Assembly: GCA_963555985.3 (NCBI GenBank)
Contig: OY820591.1
Coordinates: 2,976,001-3,040,000, forward strand
Length of the DNA: 64,000 nucleotides
Origin: Dehalococcoidia bacterium
Lineage (GTDB): Bacteria; Chloroflexota; Dehalococcoidia; Bin125
Reading direction: 5' to 3'
The position numbers and the translations under genes are program-made. Below, one piece after another: positions 6,667 through 64,000 of this stretch. Under the pieces are notes generated by a model. The model searched no databases and was not told the origin of the DNA. It saw only the letters and a program-made list of their open reading frames with translations. Positions within the stretch are counted from its first letter, which is position 1. Each line of letters starts with the position of its first letter.

Positions 6667-6791
6667 GTCCAGTTTCAGCCGGTGTTGTCCAATCTTGTCC
6701 AAATGTGTCCAATCCTGTCCAAGTGGTTCCAAGGAGTTCCAATGTCGTCCAACCGCGTCCAACGGCTTTTGCCAGGGTTTAGCTCGTCCAA
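6667..6791 (-). repeat. Phased 10-bp repeat array, unit TTGGA(C/A)NNNN
   Basis: (G/T)TCCAA at 6687, 6697, 6707, 6717, 6727, 6737, 6747, 6757; extra units at 6667 and 6786. Confidence 0.92.
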
Positions 6792-7270
6792 GCGTTGGTT
6801 GGGGTATGTCCGTCGCTCGCAGCGGCCTCTTGTCGATGTTGCTGTTCCTCGTATTCGGCATATTCCTTCCAGGCGACGACCCTGCCCTGGTATTCCACAG
6901 CTTGCTGGCGCTGTAGCTCGTCGTGATCGGCGAGTTGGGGCAGGGAGGCGAGCAGGAGGCGGAGTTCACGGGCGGCGTGGAGGCGATCTTTGACCGGGAT
7001 CGATTCCTGGTCGCCGCTCGGGGCGACGATCTGGAGAATGCTGTCGAGCAGCTGATCGACGGCGACGGCTTGCAGGAGTTGGAAGCGATGTCGCTCGTAT
7101 TCCTGGAGGTAGTTGGCTGCGGTGCCGCGAGAGCAACCCATTTGCTCGGCGATTTGGCGCAATTTGAGTCCCTTGGCGCGGAGCCGTCCGGCTTCGAGGA
7201 GCAATGGGCGGCGTTCGAGGGGAGGCAGTTCGAGCGGTTCCGCTTCGGTGTGTTTGGGATGACAGGACAT
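6779..7270 (-). CDS. Orphan helix-turn-helix protein
   Basis: GLKLRQIAEQMGCSRGTAANYL HTH; GAGGAG RBS; start MSCHPK. Confidence 0.75.
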   Translation of the reverse strand: MSCHPKHTEAEPLELPPLERRPLLLEAGRLRAKGLKLRQIAEQMGCSRGTAANYLQEYERHRFQLLQAVAVDQLLDSILQIVAPSGDQESIPVKDRLHAARELRLLLASLPQLADHDELQRQQAVEYQGRVVAWKEYAEYEEQQHRQEAAASDGHTPTNAWTS

Positions 7271-7290
7271 GTGTGGACTCCTCGGTTGTT

Positions 7291-7332
7291 GTACAGATAT
7301 TCGATTATGGCCTGAGGAGGCCGAGTCGTCAA
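7291..7332 (-). promoter_or_regulatory. sigma70 promoter with LexA-like box
   Basis: TTGACG-17-CATAAT followed by GAAT-ATCT-GTAC (7291-7302). Confidence 0.65.
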
Positions 7333-7380
7333 ACGGCTGGCTCGCCCTATGTACAGCAGGATTCATTGCGGCGAGGGAGC

Positions 7381-24208: not shown

Positions 24209-24493
24209 TCAGTCGTCCTGGGGAGGGGATTCGAGTCCCTCGTAGGCCACCTCTCGCAGCGCGATCCGCGTGACGGTGATCTCACGCACACCCGGACCGG
24301 GTTCGAAGACGATTCGGTAGCCGTCCTCGCGGACTCGGAATCTGAGTACGTTGGCCCGCATCCGCAGCGTGTCAGGCCCGTAGGGATCCCGCTCCAATTC
24401 GCGCAGCACTCTGCGCACGCGGCTTTTGGGATCGGGAGCGAGCGTGGCACGCTGCTGCTTAGCCTCGTCGGTCAGTGAGACACGGAAGCGCAC
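24209..24493 (-). CDS. RelE/ParE-family toxin
   Basis: FRVSLTDEAK, LERDPY, RFRV.GYRIVF, R..AY. Confidence 0.75.
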   Translation of the reverse strand: MRFRVSLTDEAKQQRATLAPDPKSRVRRVLRELERDPYGPDTLRMRANVLRFRVREDGYRIVFEPGPGVREITVTRIALREVAYEGLESPPQDD

Positions 24494-24495
24494 CG

Positions 24496-24834
24496 CTAAT
24501 CATCGTCCTCGTCTTCAAGCTCGTCCAAGTACGTCACGCGGCCAGCCAGCGCGTCCGCTCGCGCTTTGCGACCGATCGCATCGAGCCGCTCTTCGGCCTC
24601 GGGTGTGTAGTCAGCCGGGTAGGCGATGCCTACGCCGTACTCAGGGTCGAACATTGGCACCCAGGTGCGGCCTTGATCGTCGAACATCAGCCACTTGCGG
24701 CGCTTCTCGGACCATTGCCATCCGGGATGTTCGCGGGTGAAATCGTCGAACAGCATTCCCTTGTGCAGCCGGATTTCCGACATGGGCGTGATCGGACGGG
24801 CTTCCGAAGTACTGTCTGTTTGCTCGAGAACCAT
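24496..24834 (-). CDS. Putative antitoxin (unrecognised family)
   Basis: GGAGG RBS; directly upstream of the toxin; acidic tail ADALAGRVTYLDEL. Confidence 0.6.
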   Translation of the reverse strand: MVLEQTDSTSEARPITPMSEIRLHKGMLFDDFTREHPGWQWSEKRRKWLMFDDQGRTWVPMFDPEYGVGIAYPADYTPEAEERLDAIGRKARADALAGRVTYLDELEDEDDD

Positions 24835-24984
24835 GACCGCCTCCCTCTTGGCTACAGGATATCGGGTTGAGGGAGGCTGCCTCGGCTGCCAAACCAGACG
24901 AACCAGATTAGGTGGCCCAGAGTGCCGCGCTCTGTCCACTTTGCGACAGAGCGGCTGCCCCATTCACTGGACTGCTCCGTTTCA

Positions 24985-25010
24985 TGCTACTGTATATAGA
25001 ACTCCAGTAC
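24985..25010 (+). promoter_or_regulatory. Extended -10 promoter with LexA-like box
   Basis: TGcTACTGT then GAAC-TCCA-GTAC (24999-25010). Confidence 0.65.
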
Positions 25011-25035
25011 CGCAAGCGAAGGTGGAGCTTCCGAC

Positions 25036-25452
25036 ATGGCAATTTCCTCCCGTCACCGCCAGCGCGTTCTCAAAGCCCGCCGCGCTCGCGCCCGCAGCAA
25101 CGACGAACTCGTGCAATCCGACCGCGCACAGCTGAACGAACCTGAACACTCTGAACACGTTTTCTCCCAGCTAGCACAGGAAAAACGCAATCTTCACCCC
25201 GTGGAAAAATTTCTCGCTGAACAACCTGAACACCCCGATCAACCCGATCTCCTCATCTCCGACGAGCTGCTCCGCGAACCGATCCGCGCCCTCCGCCGGA
25301 TCTACGATGTGACCGTTGAACTCTTCCCCCACCTCCGGGGCAAATCCTACGAAGAGGTCTGCGATTTCCTCGGCACGGAAGAAGCCCGGACCTTCGACGA
25401 AAAATACGAAGCCCGCTTCGCTGAGTTGGACGACGACGAATGGTGGTACTGA
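25036..25452 (+). CDS. Orphan protein containing phased CTGAAC repeats
   Basis: GGAG RBS; basic N-terminus, acidic C-terminus. Confidence 0.65.
   Translation: MAISSRHRQRVLKARRARARSNDELVQSDRAQLNEPEHSEHVFSQLAQEKRNLHPVEKFLAEQPEHPDQPDLLISDELLREPIRALRRIYDVTVELFPHLRGKSYEEVCDFLGTEEARTFDEKYEARFAELDDDEWWY
25132..25249 (+). repeat. Phased repeat module CTGAAC x3 - spacer - CTGAAC x2 / CCGATC x2
   Basis: Units at 25132, 25142, 25151, 25217, 25226, 25235, 25244. Confidence 0.8.
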
Positions 25453-25478
25453 TCGAGTACGGCGTGAGGCTCGCTGAC

Positions 25479-26486
25479 TCAGCGAATCGCGCCCACGAAC
25501 GAGCGGACGCCGCGACGGAGATTCGTGGTCGCGTCGATCACAGCCGACGCCTCATAGCCCGAATGCACCATGCAATCCACACACTTCGGATTGCCGCTGG
25601 CGACGCCGTAGTTCTCCCACTCGGTCTCTTCGATCAGCTCTCGGAAGCTGTCCGCGTAGCCCTCGTCCATCAGGTAGCAAGGGCGCTGCCAACCGAAGAC
25701 GGTGTAGGTGGGATTGCCCCAGGGCGTGCAGTCGTATTCGATCTCGCCTTTGAGGAAATCGAGGAAGAGCTGGGAGTGATTGAAGTTCCAGTGCTTGGGC
25801 GGATCGTTGAGGATGTCGCGGAAGAGTTCTTTGGTCTGGTTGCGGGCCAGGAAGTGCTCTTGGTCGGGCGCCTTCTCGTAGGGGTAGCCGGGCGAGATCA
25901 TCAGACCATCGACGCCGATCTCCATCAGTTTGTCGAACATTCCGCGAATGCGGTCGGGCTGCGCGCCGAGGAAGAAGGTGCTGTTGGTCGTGACCCGGAA
26001 GCCGCGCTCCTTGGCTGCCTCGATCGCGCGAATGGCGATCTCCCAAACCCCGTCGCGGCAGACCGAGACGTCGTGATCGTGCTCGAGCCCGTCTACATGC
26101 ACCGAGAAGGTGAGGTACGGGTTGGGCTCGAACTGATCGAGCTTGCGCTCGAGCAGGATGGCGTTGGTGCAGAGGTAGACGAACTTCTTGCGCTCGGTGA
26201 AGCCGTTGGCGATCTCGACGATCTCGTTGTGAATCAGCGGCTCCCCGCCGGCGATCGCGACGACGGGCGCGCCGCACTCCTCGACTGCGTCCCAGCACTG
26301 CTGCGGGCTCAGCCGCCGCCGCAAGATTTCGGTCGGGTGCTGGATCTTGCCGCAACCCGCGCATTCGAGGTTGCACTGGAGCAACGGCTCCAGCATCAGC
26401 ACCAGCGGATAGCGTTCAGTCCGGCGCAGGCGCTGTCCCATGACATACTTGCCAACCTGGATCGTTTGCCGCAACGGGGTGGCCAT
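25479..26486 (-). CDS. hpnH: Adenosyl-hopene transferase HpnH (radical SAM)
   Basis: YPLVLMLEPLLQCNLECAGCGK, CTPWGNPT, CVDCMVHSGYE. Confidence 0.92.
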   Translation of the reverse strand: MATPLRQTIQVGKYVMGQRLRRTERYPLVLMLEPLLQCNLECAGCGKIQHPTEILRRRLSPQQCWDAVEECGAPVVAIAGGEPLIHNEIVEIANGFTERKKFVYLCTNAILLERKLDQFEPNPYLTFSVHVDGLEHDHDVSVCRDGVWEIAIRAIEAAKERGFRVTTNSTFFLGAQPDRIRGMFDKLMEIGVDGLMISPGYPYEKAPDQEHFLARNQTKELFRDILNDPPKHWNFNHSQLFLDFLKGEIEYDCTPWGNPTYTVFGWQRPCYLMDEGYADSFRELIEETEWENYGVASGNPKCVDCMVHSGYEASAVIDATTNLRRGVRSFVGAIR

Positions 26487-62331: not shown

Positions 62332-62916
62332 CTACTCGGGGCGCTCAAGCTGGACGCCGATGAAGTTGCTGACCGCATCGGCGACATCCAGCGACTCGCG
62401 TTCGGTCGGGAAGCGGCCCACGCGGAGCTGGGTTCCGTCGGCGAAGTTGAGATAGTTGCTGTAGGAGCCGCTGAATTGGAGCAGGAGCGGGCGCGAGCGT
62501 TGGCGCGTGATGCGCACGGTTTCCACGTCGTAGAGCTCGAAGCTCCAGTCGCGGTTGATCACCCAGAGCATCGATTGATGCACACGCCCGACATCAGCGC
62601 TGAGATCGAAGTCGATTTCGAGCACGTCTCCGCCGATCACGCCGAGGATCGCCCAAAGAATGCCGCCGCCGAAGTAGCCGGCGGCGGCGCCGATCAGCAG
62701 GGCGCCGATCAGGTCGTCGCCGCCGATCAGCAGGGCGGCGATGATCGCGCCGATCACGCCTGGAACCGCGCCGTAGGCCCAGTTGGGCAGAGGCGACCAA
62801 AAGGTGCGCACGCGCATCGTGTCGGAATTGGGGAAGGAGAGTCTGGCGATCGAGGAGCGCGTGGTCGGTTGCTGATCCTCGGAGCGGGCGGGTCGGCGTC
62901 GGCGTCGCTGTGACAT
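62332..62916 (-). CDS. Hypothetical membrane protein
   Basis: Gly-rich TM hairpin plus soluble C-terminal domain; in line with yqeK-ruvB. Confidence 0.7.
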   Translation of the reverse strand: MSQRRRRRPARSEDQQPTTRSSIARLSFPNSDTMRVRTFWSPLPNWAYGAVPGVIGAIIAALLIGGDDLIGALLIGAAAGYFGGGILWAILGVIGGDVLEIDFDLSADVGRVHQSMLWVINRDWSFELYDVETVRITRQRSRPLLLQFSGSYSNYLNFADGTQLRVGRFPTERESLDVADAVSNFIGVQLERPE

Positions 62917-63001
62917 GCACTTGAGGCTAGCCGATGCGCGCAGAGGCGCGAACGTTCCGCCTCACCCTTATCCTGAGCGTGGATAGCGAGAGGACGTTGC
63001 G

Positions 63002-63214
63002 ATGCGGCGATTCGGCGCGTTGTTGGTTGGCATCGCGGTGTGGATGTCGACGTACGGGGTCACGTTCGCAGCGGAGTCCGGGAGCCGCTATTCGGCGCCG
63101 GTCTGGGTCTGGGCGGCCGCGGGCGGCGCAACGGTCGGACTTGGGATCGCGGGATTTCTGATTGGCGTCTGGTTTCACCGCAAGCGGGAGCGTTTGGAGC
63201 GCGAGGGGGAGTGA
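63002..63214 (+). CDS. Small membrane protein
   Basis: GAGGA RBS; signal peptide, TM helix and basic tail. Confidence 0.6.
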   Translation: MRRFGALLVGIAVWMSTYGVTFAAESGSRYSAPVWVWAAAGGATVGLGIAGFLIGVWFHRKRERLEREGE

Positions 63215-63234
63215 TCGGGACGAGGGAAGGCGGG

Positions 63235-63357
63235 TGGATAGTTTGGATGGGTGGTTTGTTTTTTCCCAGGGCGGGTGAATCGACGATCTCCTGTTTTGGC
63301 TGGGAGAATCGCTGATCGGGGGTGGATGATTCTGGATAGTTTTGGATGGATTTGGAT
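63235..63357 (-). repeat. Phased repeat module ATCCA x4 - spacer - x2
   Basis: TGGAT at 63235, 63244, 63323, 63333, 63343, 63353; spacer similar to 25160-25210. Confidence 0.8.
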
Positions 63358-63374
63358 AGTGCTGCGGAGGTTCC

Positions 63375-63426
63375 GGACCCCCCTCTGCCGCTGCGCGGCA
63401 TCTCCCCCCGCAGTGCGGGGGGAGAG
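63375..63426 (+). repeat. REP family 2 double-hairpin element
   Basis: CCCCCCTC-TGCCGC-TGC-GCGGCA-TCTCCCCCC..GGGGGGAGA. Confidence 0.85.
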
Positions 63427-63483
63427 TTCTGCAACGCGCGGGTCGGTCTGAGTCTGGGCAGCAGCTAGCGACGCAGCGGGGGT

Positions 63484-63717
63484 TTAGGCCAGTACCGCGA
63501 TCAGGATGCCTGTACACGTGCCCATCGCGGCGATGATCAGGCCTCCCACAGTGATGACGACCTTGATGATGTCGAGCTTGGCTTCGGAAATGATCTTCCT
63601 GACGCGCTGTTCGAGGTCGTCGTCAAGCGCGGCCATAAACTTGCCCGCATCCTCATCTCCCCACTTTGCCCGAATGACGTCGTACAGGCGGATATGCGGC
63701 AACACGCTCACTGTCAT
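63484..63717 (-). CDS. Small coiled-coil protein with C-terminal TM (DUF1640-like)
   Basis: AAGGAG RBS; LYDVI..WGDEDA..KLDIIK followed by TM. Confidence 0.6.
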   Translation of the reverse strand: MTVSVLPHIRLYDVIRAKWGDEDAGKFMAALDDDLEQRVRKIISEAKLDIIKVVITVGGLIIAAMGTCTGILIAVLA

Positions 63718-63779
63718 CTCCTTGCTAGAGACGATCCACCGCCATCTTACCGAATGCCGCCTGGTCAGAGAGTGCAGCG

Positions 63780-64000
63780 CTAGATGTTGAGCAGATCCGC
63801 GACCTTCTCGCGGTGGTGGTCGGCGTCGCCCCACATCAGCTCGGCCATCTTCTGGCGGCGGAAGTAGAGCTGGATGATGTACTCCTTGGTGAAGCCGATG
63901 CCGCCGTGGATCTGCTGGCCGTGGGCGACCACGCGGCGGGTGGCGTCGGAACACCAGGCCTTGGCCATGGCGACCTGGAGGTCGGCGTCGGGCTCGTTCT
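63780..64000 (-). CDS. Acyl-CoA dehydrogenase, 3' part (runs off window)
   Basis: VAMAKAW, QIHGGIGFTKEY, YFRR, WGDADHHRE. Confidence 0.9.
   Translation of the reverse strand, partial: NEPDADLQVAMAKAWCSDATRRVVAHGQQIHGGIGFTKEYIIQLYFRRQKMAELMWGDADHHREKVADLLNI

Follow-up and report, generated by a model that had tools for sequence, protein, structure and literature searches.

In phage lambda the replication origin lies within gene O, and lambdoid O proteins and their iterons co-vary. The pac site in pacA of phage P1 carries 4+3 hexanucleotide repeats on both sides of the cut region, and in parC of plasmid R1 two direct-repeat blocks bound by ParR flank the core promoter. Dispersed bacterial repeats, including repetitive extragenic palindromes (REP) and bacterial interspersed mosaic elements (BIME), enterobacterial repetitive intergenic consensus (ERIC) sequences, Correia elements and miniature inverted-repeat transposable elements (MITEs), are short, multi-copy and mostly intergenic, and Rickettsia palindromic elements (RPEs) sit in frame inside genes, where some are read as protein. 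Extracytoplasmic function (ECF) sigma factors use their region 4 to read GGAAC-type -35 words. The lambda origin comprises iterons ITN1-4 and an AT-rich stretch (PMC3349717), and a review places the P22 pac site in the gene of the small terminase, TerS (PMC9611059). Here we analyzed a stretch of 64,000 nucleotides from a Dehalococcoidia bacterium (contig OY820591.1; hereafter the window), in which two modules, near 63 kb and near 25 kb, are copies of one DNA cassette family that is specific to a few Dehalococcoidia genera. Its members carry phased direct repeats around a conserved core, and they occur both inside genes encoding helix-turn-helix (HTH) proteins and as solo copies.

Similar to the lambda origin, the cassette places phased direct repeats by an A/T-rich stretch inside the coding region of a putative DNA-binding protein, between the DNA-binding and C-terminal parts. 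It differs in having repeats on both sides of an inverted-repeat core, proteins without detectable similarity to O, and 18-21 gene copies plus dozens of solo sites per chromosome; a search for replication partners found none. As in the pac/TerS pair, a cis site lies within the gene of an HTH protein thought to read it, TerS likewise combining an HTH with a helical oligomerisation part; unlike that pair, the cassette has no phage context, its proteins match no terminase family, and its copies are multiple and dispersed. The parC site of R1 resembles it in having two phased direct-repeat blocks around a core of ~40-50 bp, whereas the cassette core lacks a promoter consensus, no partition genes accompany it, and the site lies inside a coding region. 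With dispersed bacterial repeats the cassette shares its shortness, its multiple and mostly intergenic copies, a copy number that varies between relatives and the translation of some copies. Unlike them, it is made of direct repeats around a core without terminal inverted repeats, no target duplication was seen at the HTH-unit boundaries, and within genes it is confined to a single position of a single gene family, where its synonymous positions are conserved. The HTH proteins resemble sigma-70 region 4 and LuxR/GerE-type HTH domains in their N-terminal 45 residues, which match region 4 models with all scores below the curated cut-offs, but they lack sigma regions 2 and 3, and their hairpin, linker and C-terminal helices match no described family. 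Literature searches (supplements excluded) on Chloroflexi iterons, HTH or intergenic repeats and on Dehalococcoidia repetitive elements returned no description of the cassette among the papers listed; among the listed text matches of the unit and core sequences, unit words occurred in unrelated primers only, and the 25-base core in none.

On the minus strand of the window, positions 63235-63357 read as four ATCCA units, a spacer and two further ATCCA units, in agreement with the layout given in an earlier note on this DNA. The left array (63323-63357) holds units at 63353-63357, 63343-63347, 63333-63337 and 63323-63327, spaced by exactly 10 bp, and also a fifth, out-of-phase ATCCA at 63347-63351 that the note had not listed. 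The array is followed by the conserved core TTCTCCCAGCCAAAACAGGAGATCGTCGA (63280-63308), which contains the short inverted repeat TCTCC / GGAGA, and by TTCACCCGCCCTGGGAAAAAACAAAC, which extends down to 63254. In this latter part (63254-63279) a variable stretch precedes the A-run (TTCACCCGCCCT GGGAAAAAACAAAC), the sequence after the core reading TTCACCC...GGGAAAAAACAAAC. The right array (63235-63248) consists of two ATCCA units 9 bp apart, at 63244-63248 and 63235-63239. The full profile match of this copy covers 63196-63390 of the minus strand (nhmmer, contig C1 3039390-3039196, E 2e-23). On the plus strand, the 25-kb module shows three CTGAAC units 10 and 9 bp apart (25132-25156), a spacer (25162-25215) composed of the core TTCTCCCAGCTAGCACAGGAAAAACGCAA, a variable stretch and the A-run GGAAAAATTTCTC, and two CTGAAC units 9 bp apart (25217-25231), all within a profile match at 25086-25283 (C1 3001086-3001283, E 2.8e-37).

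The core and A-run thus match between the two modules and the repeat unit differs, as the note had reported. The window contains exactly two matches to the 22-base pattern TTCTCCCAGCNNNNACAGGANA; shuffling gives an expectation of 0.01, and two matches appeared in 0 of 100 shuffles. Local alignment of the spacers (48-49 bases) scores 26, a value reached by none of 2000 dinucleotide shuffles (mean 12.7, sd 2.4, maximum 25). The proposed homology of the modules, with a conserved scaffold and differing flanking units, was therefore borne out, and the spacer similarity is significant; that the modules belong to a dispersed family of about 50 copies, some embedded in genes, had not been foreseen.

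The 63-kb module is a non-coding solo copy with no HTH-family remnants beside it. The sole frame that reads through it (63060-63434, minus strand) has G+C fractions of 0.62, 0.65 and 0.62 at the first, second and third codon positions, unlike local genes. The REP-type hairpin said to adjoin this copy was confirmed at 63401-63425; it belongs to another repeat family and lies outside the cassette. In four sequencing runs inspected over 18 kb around the copy, two long contigs (X1, X2) carry the cassette unchanged and end in the REP hairpin, and no insertion polymorphism was seen in the reads and contigs. A 71-codon open reading frame (ORF) at 63002-63214 has a third-position G+C (GC3) of 0.82; should this be a genuine ORF, the 63-kb copy is flanked by two gene ends and is not upstream of the gene at 62332-62916.

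The genome (3.33 Mb, 65% G+C) was searched first with a fuzzy pattern and then with an nhmmer profile from 14 seeds at a threshold of E<1e-3. The profile gave 56 matches, including two that are extra arrays beside another match and about eight on small contigs repeating C1 loci, and the true count is ~45-48 loci. Further copies of the spacer are thus present, and their flanking units were tabulated. The common plan consists of three to four units at 9-10 bp, TTCTCCCAGCCAnCACAGGAGATC, 12-14 variable bases, GAAAAAATTCTCC and one to three more units, over a length of ~130 bp; the core holds the inverted repeat and is followed by the A-run. With units 9-10 bp apart, the cassette has the three or more direct repeats in helical phase that are a feature of iterons. 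AA dinucleotides to the left of the core are periodic across all 56 matches, at lag 10 (z 16.5) and lag 9 (z 9.7), and all unit variants are A-rich at the same phase. When a single solo copy was used as a BLAST query against 41 genomes of relatives, full-length relatives were found in one other genome only, and the profile and patterns were needed to detect the rest of the family.

Two or more C[CT]GAAC units stand on the left in 35 matches, 31 of which carry the same unit on the right. At least two ATCCA units stand on the left in five matches, with ATCCA on the right in four of them (the 63-kb copy, C1 58692, C1 1850248 and a small-contig duplicate of C1 1850248), compared with only 1 of the 35 GAAC-type matches. 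An additional ATCCA-type copy, truncated, lies at C1 745171. The left unit therefore predicts the right one, and to this extent the note was correct in stating that the units switch together. Because copies of a subfamily share their units by descent, however, co-switching alone does not show function.

A hidden Markov model (HMM) of the N-terminal domain identified 21 HTH-family matches in the genome, and 17 of 47 long cassette matches lie within 12 same-strand HTH-family loci. The embedded cassette occupies the linker-coding part of the gene. Relatives in two other genera have arrays at the same place within their HTH-family genes, and there the linker carries C[CT]GAACAAAC at a 10-bp period, so that consecutive units translate as LN, PEQ and TRT. 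The 25-kb copy sits within an ORF of 138 aa (25036-25452, plus strand), which contradicts the statement in the note that no convincing ORF is attached. This ORF is a truncated HTH-family paralog that comprises the linker and C-terminal domain and lacks the HTH: hhalign against the family alignment A1 gives a probability of 93.9% (E 1.6e-7; residues 37-113 on columns 159-222), and the C-terminal motif HMM matches within it at C1 3001315-3001371 (E 1.1e-4). No match to it was found in Pfam, PHROG or NCBIfam.

Proteins of the HTH family are ~200-300 aa long. An AlphaFold model of one member (mean predicted local distance difference test score, pLDDT, 71) places a three-helix HTH at the N terminus, followed by a long helical hairpin (residues 35-124), a Pro/Glu/Gln-rich linker that is disordered, and two short C-terminal helices (..FPHLKGQS..FLDQ..AAG); a homodimer prediction for residues 1-130 scored 0.02. 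The N-terminal 45 residues match the sigma-70 region 4 models TIGR02985 (E 4.8e-6) and TIGR02937 (E 1.3e-5), both below cut-offs, and the matches to Pfam Sigma70_r4, Sigma70_r4_2, HTH_38, HTH_23, HTH_11 and DeoR are confined to the HTH part. None of the cassette-bearing paralogs reaches a Pfam cut-off, the closest being HTH_38 at 26.9 vs 27. Fold searches with Foldseek returned no match at E<=0.001 in PDB and BFVD, a wide search with VIA-align returned generic helical hairpins only at Z 9-10 and a DeoR-type HTH at Z 8.6, and the Atlas search gave leads only (best score 0.88). We identified 166 homologs at E<=1e-3, which, where the source is named, come from metagenome-assembled genomes (MAGs) of Chloroflexi or Chloroflexota; the named genome records with homologs are Chloroflexota or Dehalococcoidia MAGs.

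Conservation within the genes was measured on 29 full-length genes from 52 loci of 15 named MAG records, of which 24 were kept at <90% identity (mean amino-acid identity 61%). In these 24 genes, 11 core codons have a nucleotide conservation of 0.957 and a third-position conservation of 0.955, compared with 0.817 and 0.758 for the HTH region, and the core is the best-conserved 11-codon window of the entire gene. Non-preferred codons are kept in the core (ACG in 22/23, AGT in 21/24 and CCA in 23/23), other conserved Thr columns being mostly ACC, and these codons build an inverted repeat of 9-12 bp, ACGATCTCC N11 GGAGATCGT. The codons of the A-run are invariant (GAA in 21/21, AAA in 22/22) in a genome that prefers G/C-ending codons. 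Embedded C[CT]GAAC units from 10 loci occupy all three codon phases (17, 38 and 16 units; two of the ten loci yielded no units because the wrong frame was picked), and T is never present in the codon phase where TGA would arise (0/16). Many solo copies have TGA stops in the frame of the core within the left array. Conservation of the core at the nucleotide level, together with repeats in all three frames, shows that selection is on DNA or RNA rather than on the peptide. It also supports the functional cis element proposed in the note better than co-switching does, and the units themselves may be specificity sites.

Among the 41 relatives, the HTH family occurs in eight genomes, and phased CYGAAC arrays (at least three windows) in the same eight. 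Across 65 genomes of the taxonomic family, 31 encode HTH-family proteins and 28 of these have at least three CYGAAC array windows, compared with 3 of the 34 genomes without the HTH family (Fisher 8e-12 for co-occurrence, the counts including embedded arrays and related genomes not being independent). Within genus g7 alone, arrays are present in 19 of 22 genomes with the HTH family vs 3 of 15 without it. The reversed-pattern control gave 0-2 per genome, except for one genome with 10. Similar to MITEs, the cassette is multi-copy, with presence and absence differing between relatives: three-unit array windows range from 0 to 314 per genome, with the maximum in G019. This genome has 193 four-unit windows with one fixed unit order, and its array is part of a ~250-bp element that has a core of its own, CCGACCAGATAGG, together with a TCACCC...GAAAAAAACAAAC part like that of the cassette and an additional array of TTGACA. 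In the G019 solos (L125, ~1380-1480 of the oriented locus), TTGACA occurs six times at ~11 bp upstream of the CYGAAC array; in the window's genome no TTGACA array was found. Covariation of the HTH recognition helix with unit type was tabulated roughly and is given no weight here, since each gene is physically linked to the site embedded in it.

The genomic setting of the solos was assessed with a rough gene set, made up of ORFs no shorter than 100 aa whose second and third codon positions have coding-like G+C. By this set, 29 of the 30 long matches that are not in HTH loci are intergenic. Where the adjacent genes are in tandem, 16 solos are co-oriented and two opposed (binomial 0.0013); eight lie between divergent genes, and three between convergent genes. 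A co-oriented downstream gene is present for 24 of the 29 intergenic long matches, and several solos end 19-38 bp before a start codon. The downstream genes are varied and ordinary; 6 of 10 N-terminal fragments scanned have a Pfam match above cut-off, namely DNA polymerase III beta, ribosomal protein L19, an HflX-type GTPase, biotin carboxylase, a family III CoA-transferase and an NAD-binding flavoprotein.

We tentatively propose, with a probability of roughly 40%, that the sigma-4-like HTH paralogs bind the phased units as iteron-like arrays, which have spread like MITEs. The cassette fits a DNA element that acts in cis, is part of the HTH gene family and has additionally proliferated independently of it, and gene embedding suggests that it may be a docking site for HTH-family proteins. 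The resemblance of the HTH to sigma-70 region 4, which in ECF sigma factors reads GGAAC-type words, makes it a plausible reader of the units. The N-terminal sigma-70-region-4-like HTH would read the phased repeats as iteron-like sites, and the proteins would line up, through the helical hairpin, on both sides of a bent core formed by the inverted repeat and A-run, possibly oligomerising along the array and affecting neighbour genes. As each gene carries its own site, protein and site would be inherited and diversify together, and such co-diversification would yield subfamilies with differing units (CTGAAC, ATCCA/GACCA and CTGAAA). Solo cassettes would be sites spread without the gene, in a MITE-like manner, and would act as trans targets near gene starts or be merely tolerated. 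If true, this would provide a route by which a regulator and its target spread and diversify together, and the arrays would form a natural library of matched protein-site pairs in uncultured Dehalococcoidia that could be useful for understanding DNA reading by sigma-4-type helices. A more speculative extension, to which we give little credence, is that the HTH gene with its internal cassette represents a self-contained module of a new kind, either selfish or regulatory, in which the protein and its iteron/inverted-repeat site move, duplicate and switch specificity as one unit and seed solos; the ATCCA subfamily could then mimic or compete for replication-initiator sites.

Several observations weigh against binding arrays for the HTH proteins. 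Nine of the 21 HTH-family matches, including the one at 6779-7366 of the window, have no profile-detected cassette. The loop of the inverted repeat varies in length from 5 to 11 nt between the arms, which fits a hairpin better than a dimer site with fixed spacing, and the left arm is often decayed in solo copies. Co-occurrence of genes and arrays, as well as gene-unit covariation, would also be expected if solos merely derive from the genes, and the arrays could be no more than curved DNA produced by phased A-tracts. In the relative G019, the solos show no orientation preference (four co-oriented, four opposed and two with no gene called, n=10). At the one orthologous locus examined, upstream of dnaN, only 2 of 11 genomes carry a full cassette, namely the window's genome and G018, both with the core variant CAGCrGCAAAT; the two copies are colinear with the little spacer that can still be aligned, the core having outlasted the surrounding spacer sequence. 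G072 has a possible cassette remnant at this locus, and the other eight genomes have a short spacer without a cassette. A block, ATATCGnnnnnnnnnGTGATCA, adjoins dnaN in all 11 genomes, downstream of the cassette position. With this block kept in the absence of the cassette, and the cassette present in two genomes, the cassette behaves as an insertion at dnaN and looks like one, rather than like a required site or promoter.

The alternative that survives best, which we consider somewhat unlikely, is a selfish repeat without host function. An internal piece of the HTH genes would have been copied, as gene fragments or in a MITE-like manner, to give solos that spread by recombination or a transposase and are tolerated mainly in 5' intergenic DNA, and the unit types would mark descent. 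The wide variation of array counts among related genomes (3 to 314 three-unit windows), the fixed unit order in G019, which indicates copied sequence, and the patchy presence at dnaN are all consistent with this explanation. Intermediates between genes and solos exist, such as C1 1392690 with HTH and C-terminal remnants on both sides and the 25-kb ORF without an HTH. The HTH gene units, too, have duplicates (99.8% identity over 1056 bp), with REP hairpins at their borders, and MAG contigs often end inside HTH genes. On the other hand, the terminal inverted repeats of MITEs and insertion sequences were not found, both cassette ends carrying the same unit in the same orientation, and neither target-site duplications nor a transposase were seen at the HTH-unit boundaries, which abut REP hairpins; comparison with empty sites defined solo ends only at the dnaN locus. 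A core held at synonymous sites in genes of many species is unexpected for a neutral passenger, and the co-orientation of solos in tandem contexts (16 vs 2) also speaks against this explanation. Even if selfish, the cassette would clearly exemplify, for bacteria, a DNA signal that is overprinted on the coding sequence of a protein linker and maintained at synonymous positions in different species.

Less probable is that the cassette acts as promoter-proximal architectural DNA, whose phased A-tracts curve the DNA upstream of gene starts and tune downstream transcription without the HTH proteins. The 10-bp AA periodicity, the A-richness of every unit variant at the same phase, the frequency of co-oriented downstream genes and the proximity of several copies to start codons would all agree with such a role. 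It leaves unexplained, however, why the core is conserved inside genes, and the promoter-proximal block at dnaN is conserved without a cassette. Neither window copy is associated with a sigma-70-type promoter (-35/-10 hexamers at 16-18 bp; 0 sites in 62800-63800 and 24800-25600 vs 0.2 expected), and the 63-kb copy would lie between two gene ends if ORF 63002-63214 is real. A terminator scan found none near the 63-kb copy, and two terminator-like sites in the 25-kb window vs 0.8 expected, neither of them inside the cassette. Sigma-54 and ECF promoter readings of the core, compared by eye, did not fit the consensus spacings.

An RNA element seems to us improbable; here the inverted repeat would fold into a hairpin in the 5' leader or mRNA, and the A-run would serve as a slippage or pausing site that controls either the downstream gene or the C-terminal portion of the HTH proteins. 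Such an element could account for stem arms that are kept as the loop varies in length, for the Thr codon ACG, which pairs with the CGT of ATC-GTC, and for the invariant GAA and AAA codons of the A-run despite the preference for G/C-ending codons, and many solos must fall in 5' leaders. Against it, RNAalifold returned an energy of 0.0 and no consensus structure on both strands of 24 aligned copies, the hairpin being present in a subset only, and Rfam covariance models at gathering score gave 0 matches in the whole window. In most solos the left arm is uncompensated, and there is no room after the A-run for a second reading-frame product.

We regard as slightly more improbable still a replication- or packaging-type site, with an HTH protein whose own gene would contain the origin that it uses as an initiator or the pac site that it recognises as a small terminase. 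The layout of HTH, helical hairpin, flexible part and short C-terminal docking domain would suit such a protein, the site lies within the coding region of the gene itself, and the repeats flank a core with an A-rich stretch. Parallels exist in the P22 pac site within the TerS gene and the simple helical hairpin of T4-like TerS, both described in a review (PMC9611059), and in the four iterons and AT-rich stretch of the lambda origin (PMC3349717). However, neither PDB nor BFVD contains a fold match at E<=0.001; terminase small-subunit rows appear in Foldseek at E 0.5 or more, and an Atlas cluster with Terminase_5, scoring 0.88, is a lead only. The PHROG and NCBIfam matches include no terminase or replication family. 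Neighbour ORFs, compared by size and order (their families were not scanned), vary between the 21 HTH loci; this comparison revealed no recurrent partner gene, and hence no linked genes for replication or partition. A total of 18-21 copies per chromosome, with dozens of solos, misfits a single origin or pac site. Finally, a conserved peptide motif alone (..FSQPxQEI..EK..), selected at the protein level and suggested by a TTC TCC CAG frame that runs without a stop through the core of most copies and encodes FSQP.QEI / ISSPEQEIV, deserves almost no credence, being contradicted by the TGA stops in that frame in the left array of many solos, the fixed third positions and rare codons, the units in all three phases and the non-coding composition of the 63-kb frame.

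A second HTH-family paralog lies in the window at 6779-7366 on the minus strand (N-terminal HMM, C1 2983216-2982929, E 2.1e-14). It is divergent and the sole paralog that passes a Pfam cut-off (HTH_23, 27.8 bits vs 24.6). It falls in a subgroup of nine cassette-less genes, three of which (C1 2572187, 581887 and 1925646) are mutually 94-99.8% identical. REP-type hairpins bound HTH units on one or both sides, as at C1 2572067-2573122, 582007-580952, 999331-1000133 and paralogs, and the boundaries of the duplicated units lie inside REPs. In the group-1 paralog at C1 2798824-2799594, the C-terminal domain is in a different frame from the N-terminal part (C-terminal HMM 2799405-2799515); this is either a gene broken by a frameshift after the A-run of the cassette or a slippage candidate.

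Of 52 loci from named MAG records, 14 end inside an HTH gene, mostly near the linker (L086, L093, L102, L106, L109, L110, L112-L117, L120 and L121), and the cassette evidently breaks short-read assemblies. In practical terms, cassettes and their genes break metagenome assemblies and inflate the counts of hypothetical proteins in this lineage. Around the 25-kb ORF, the G+C content is lowered (0.60-0.62; 24209-24963 on the minus strand and 25001-26000), and two small ORFs there have no Pfam matches; a radical-SAM/DUF3463 gene (25479-26486) adjoins the ORF.

The spacer between a haloacid dehalogenase (HAD)-type hydrolase gene and dnaN (ten relatives, L063-L067 and L153-L157; C1 171540-172420 in the window's genome) contains the DnaA-box-like words TGTCCACA, CTATCCACC and GTCATCCACC as well as a conserved AT-rich block, ATATCGATAACCTAAGTGATCAATACTTGG. 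This spacer is probably the chromosomal origin in the taxonomic family, though dnaA lies elsewhere (C1 ~64 kb). The consensus of the DnaA box is TTATCCACA, and the six units of the 63-kb copy match it at 6-7 of 9 positions, as judged by eye and without statistics. Two of these six ATCCA units (CTATCCACC and TCATCCACC) are letter-identical to box-like words beside dnaN in relatives. The idea that the 25-kb copy marks the origin was dropped, the cumulative GC skew of C1 being too noisy and dnaA, at ~64 kb of C1, lying far from the window. Other arrays with a 10-bp phase stand upstream of genes elsewhere in this genome, with ATCCAGAC three times at C1 2247700-2247910 (minus strand) and GATCTGGA types at C1 2740484 and 1103219, and phased arrays of varied units seem to be a general feature of its 5' spacers.

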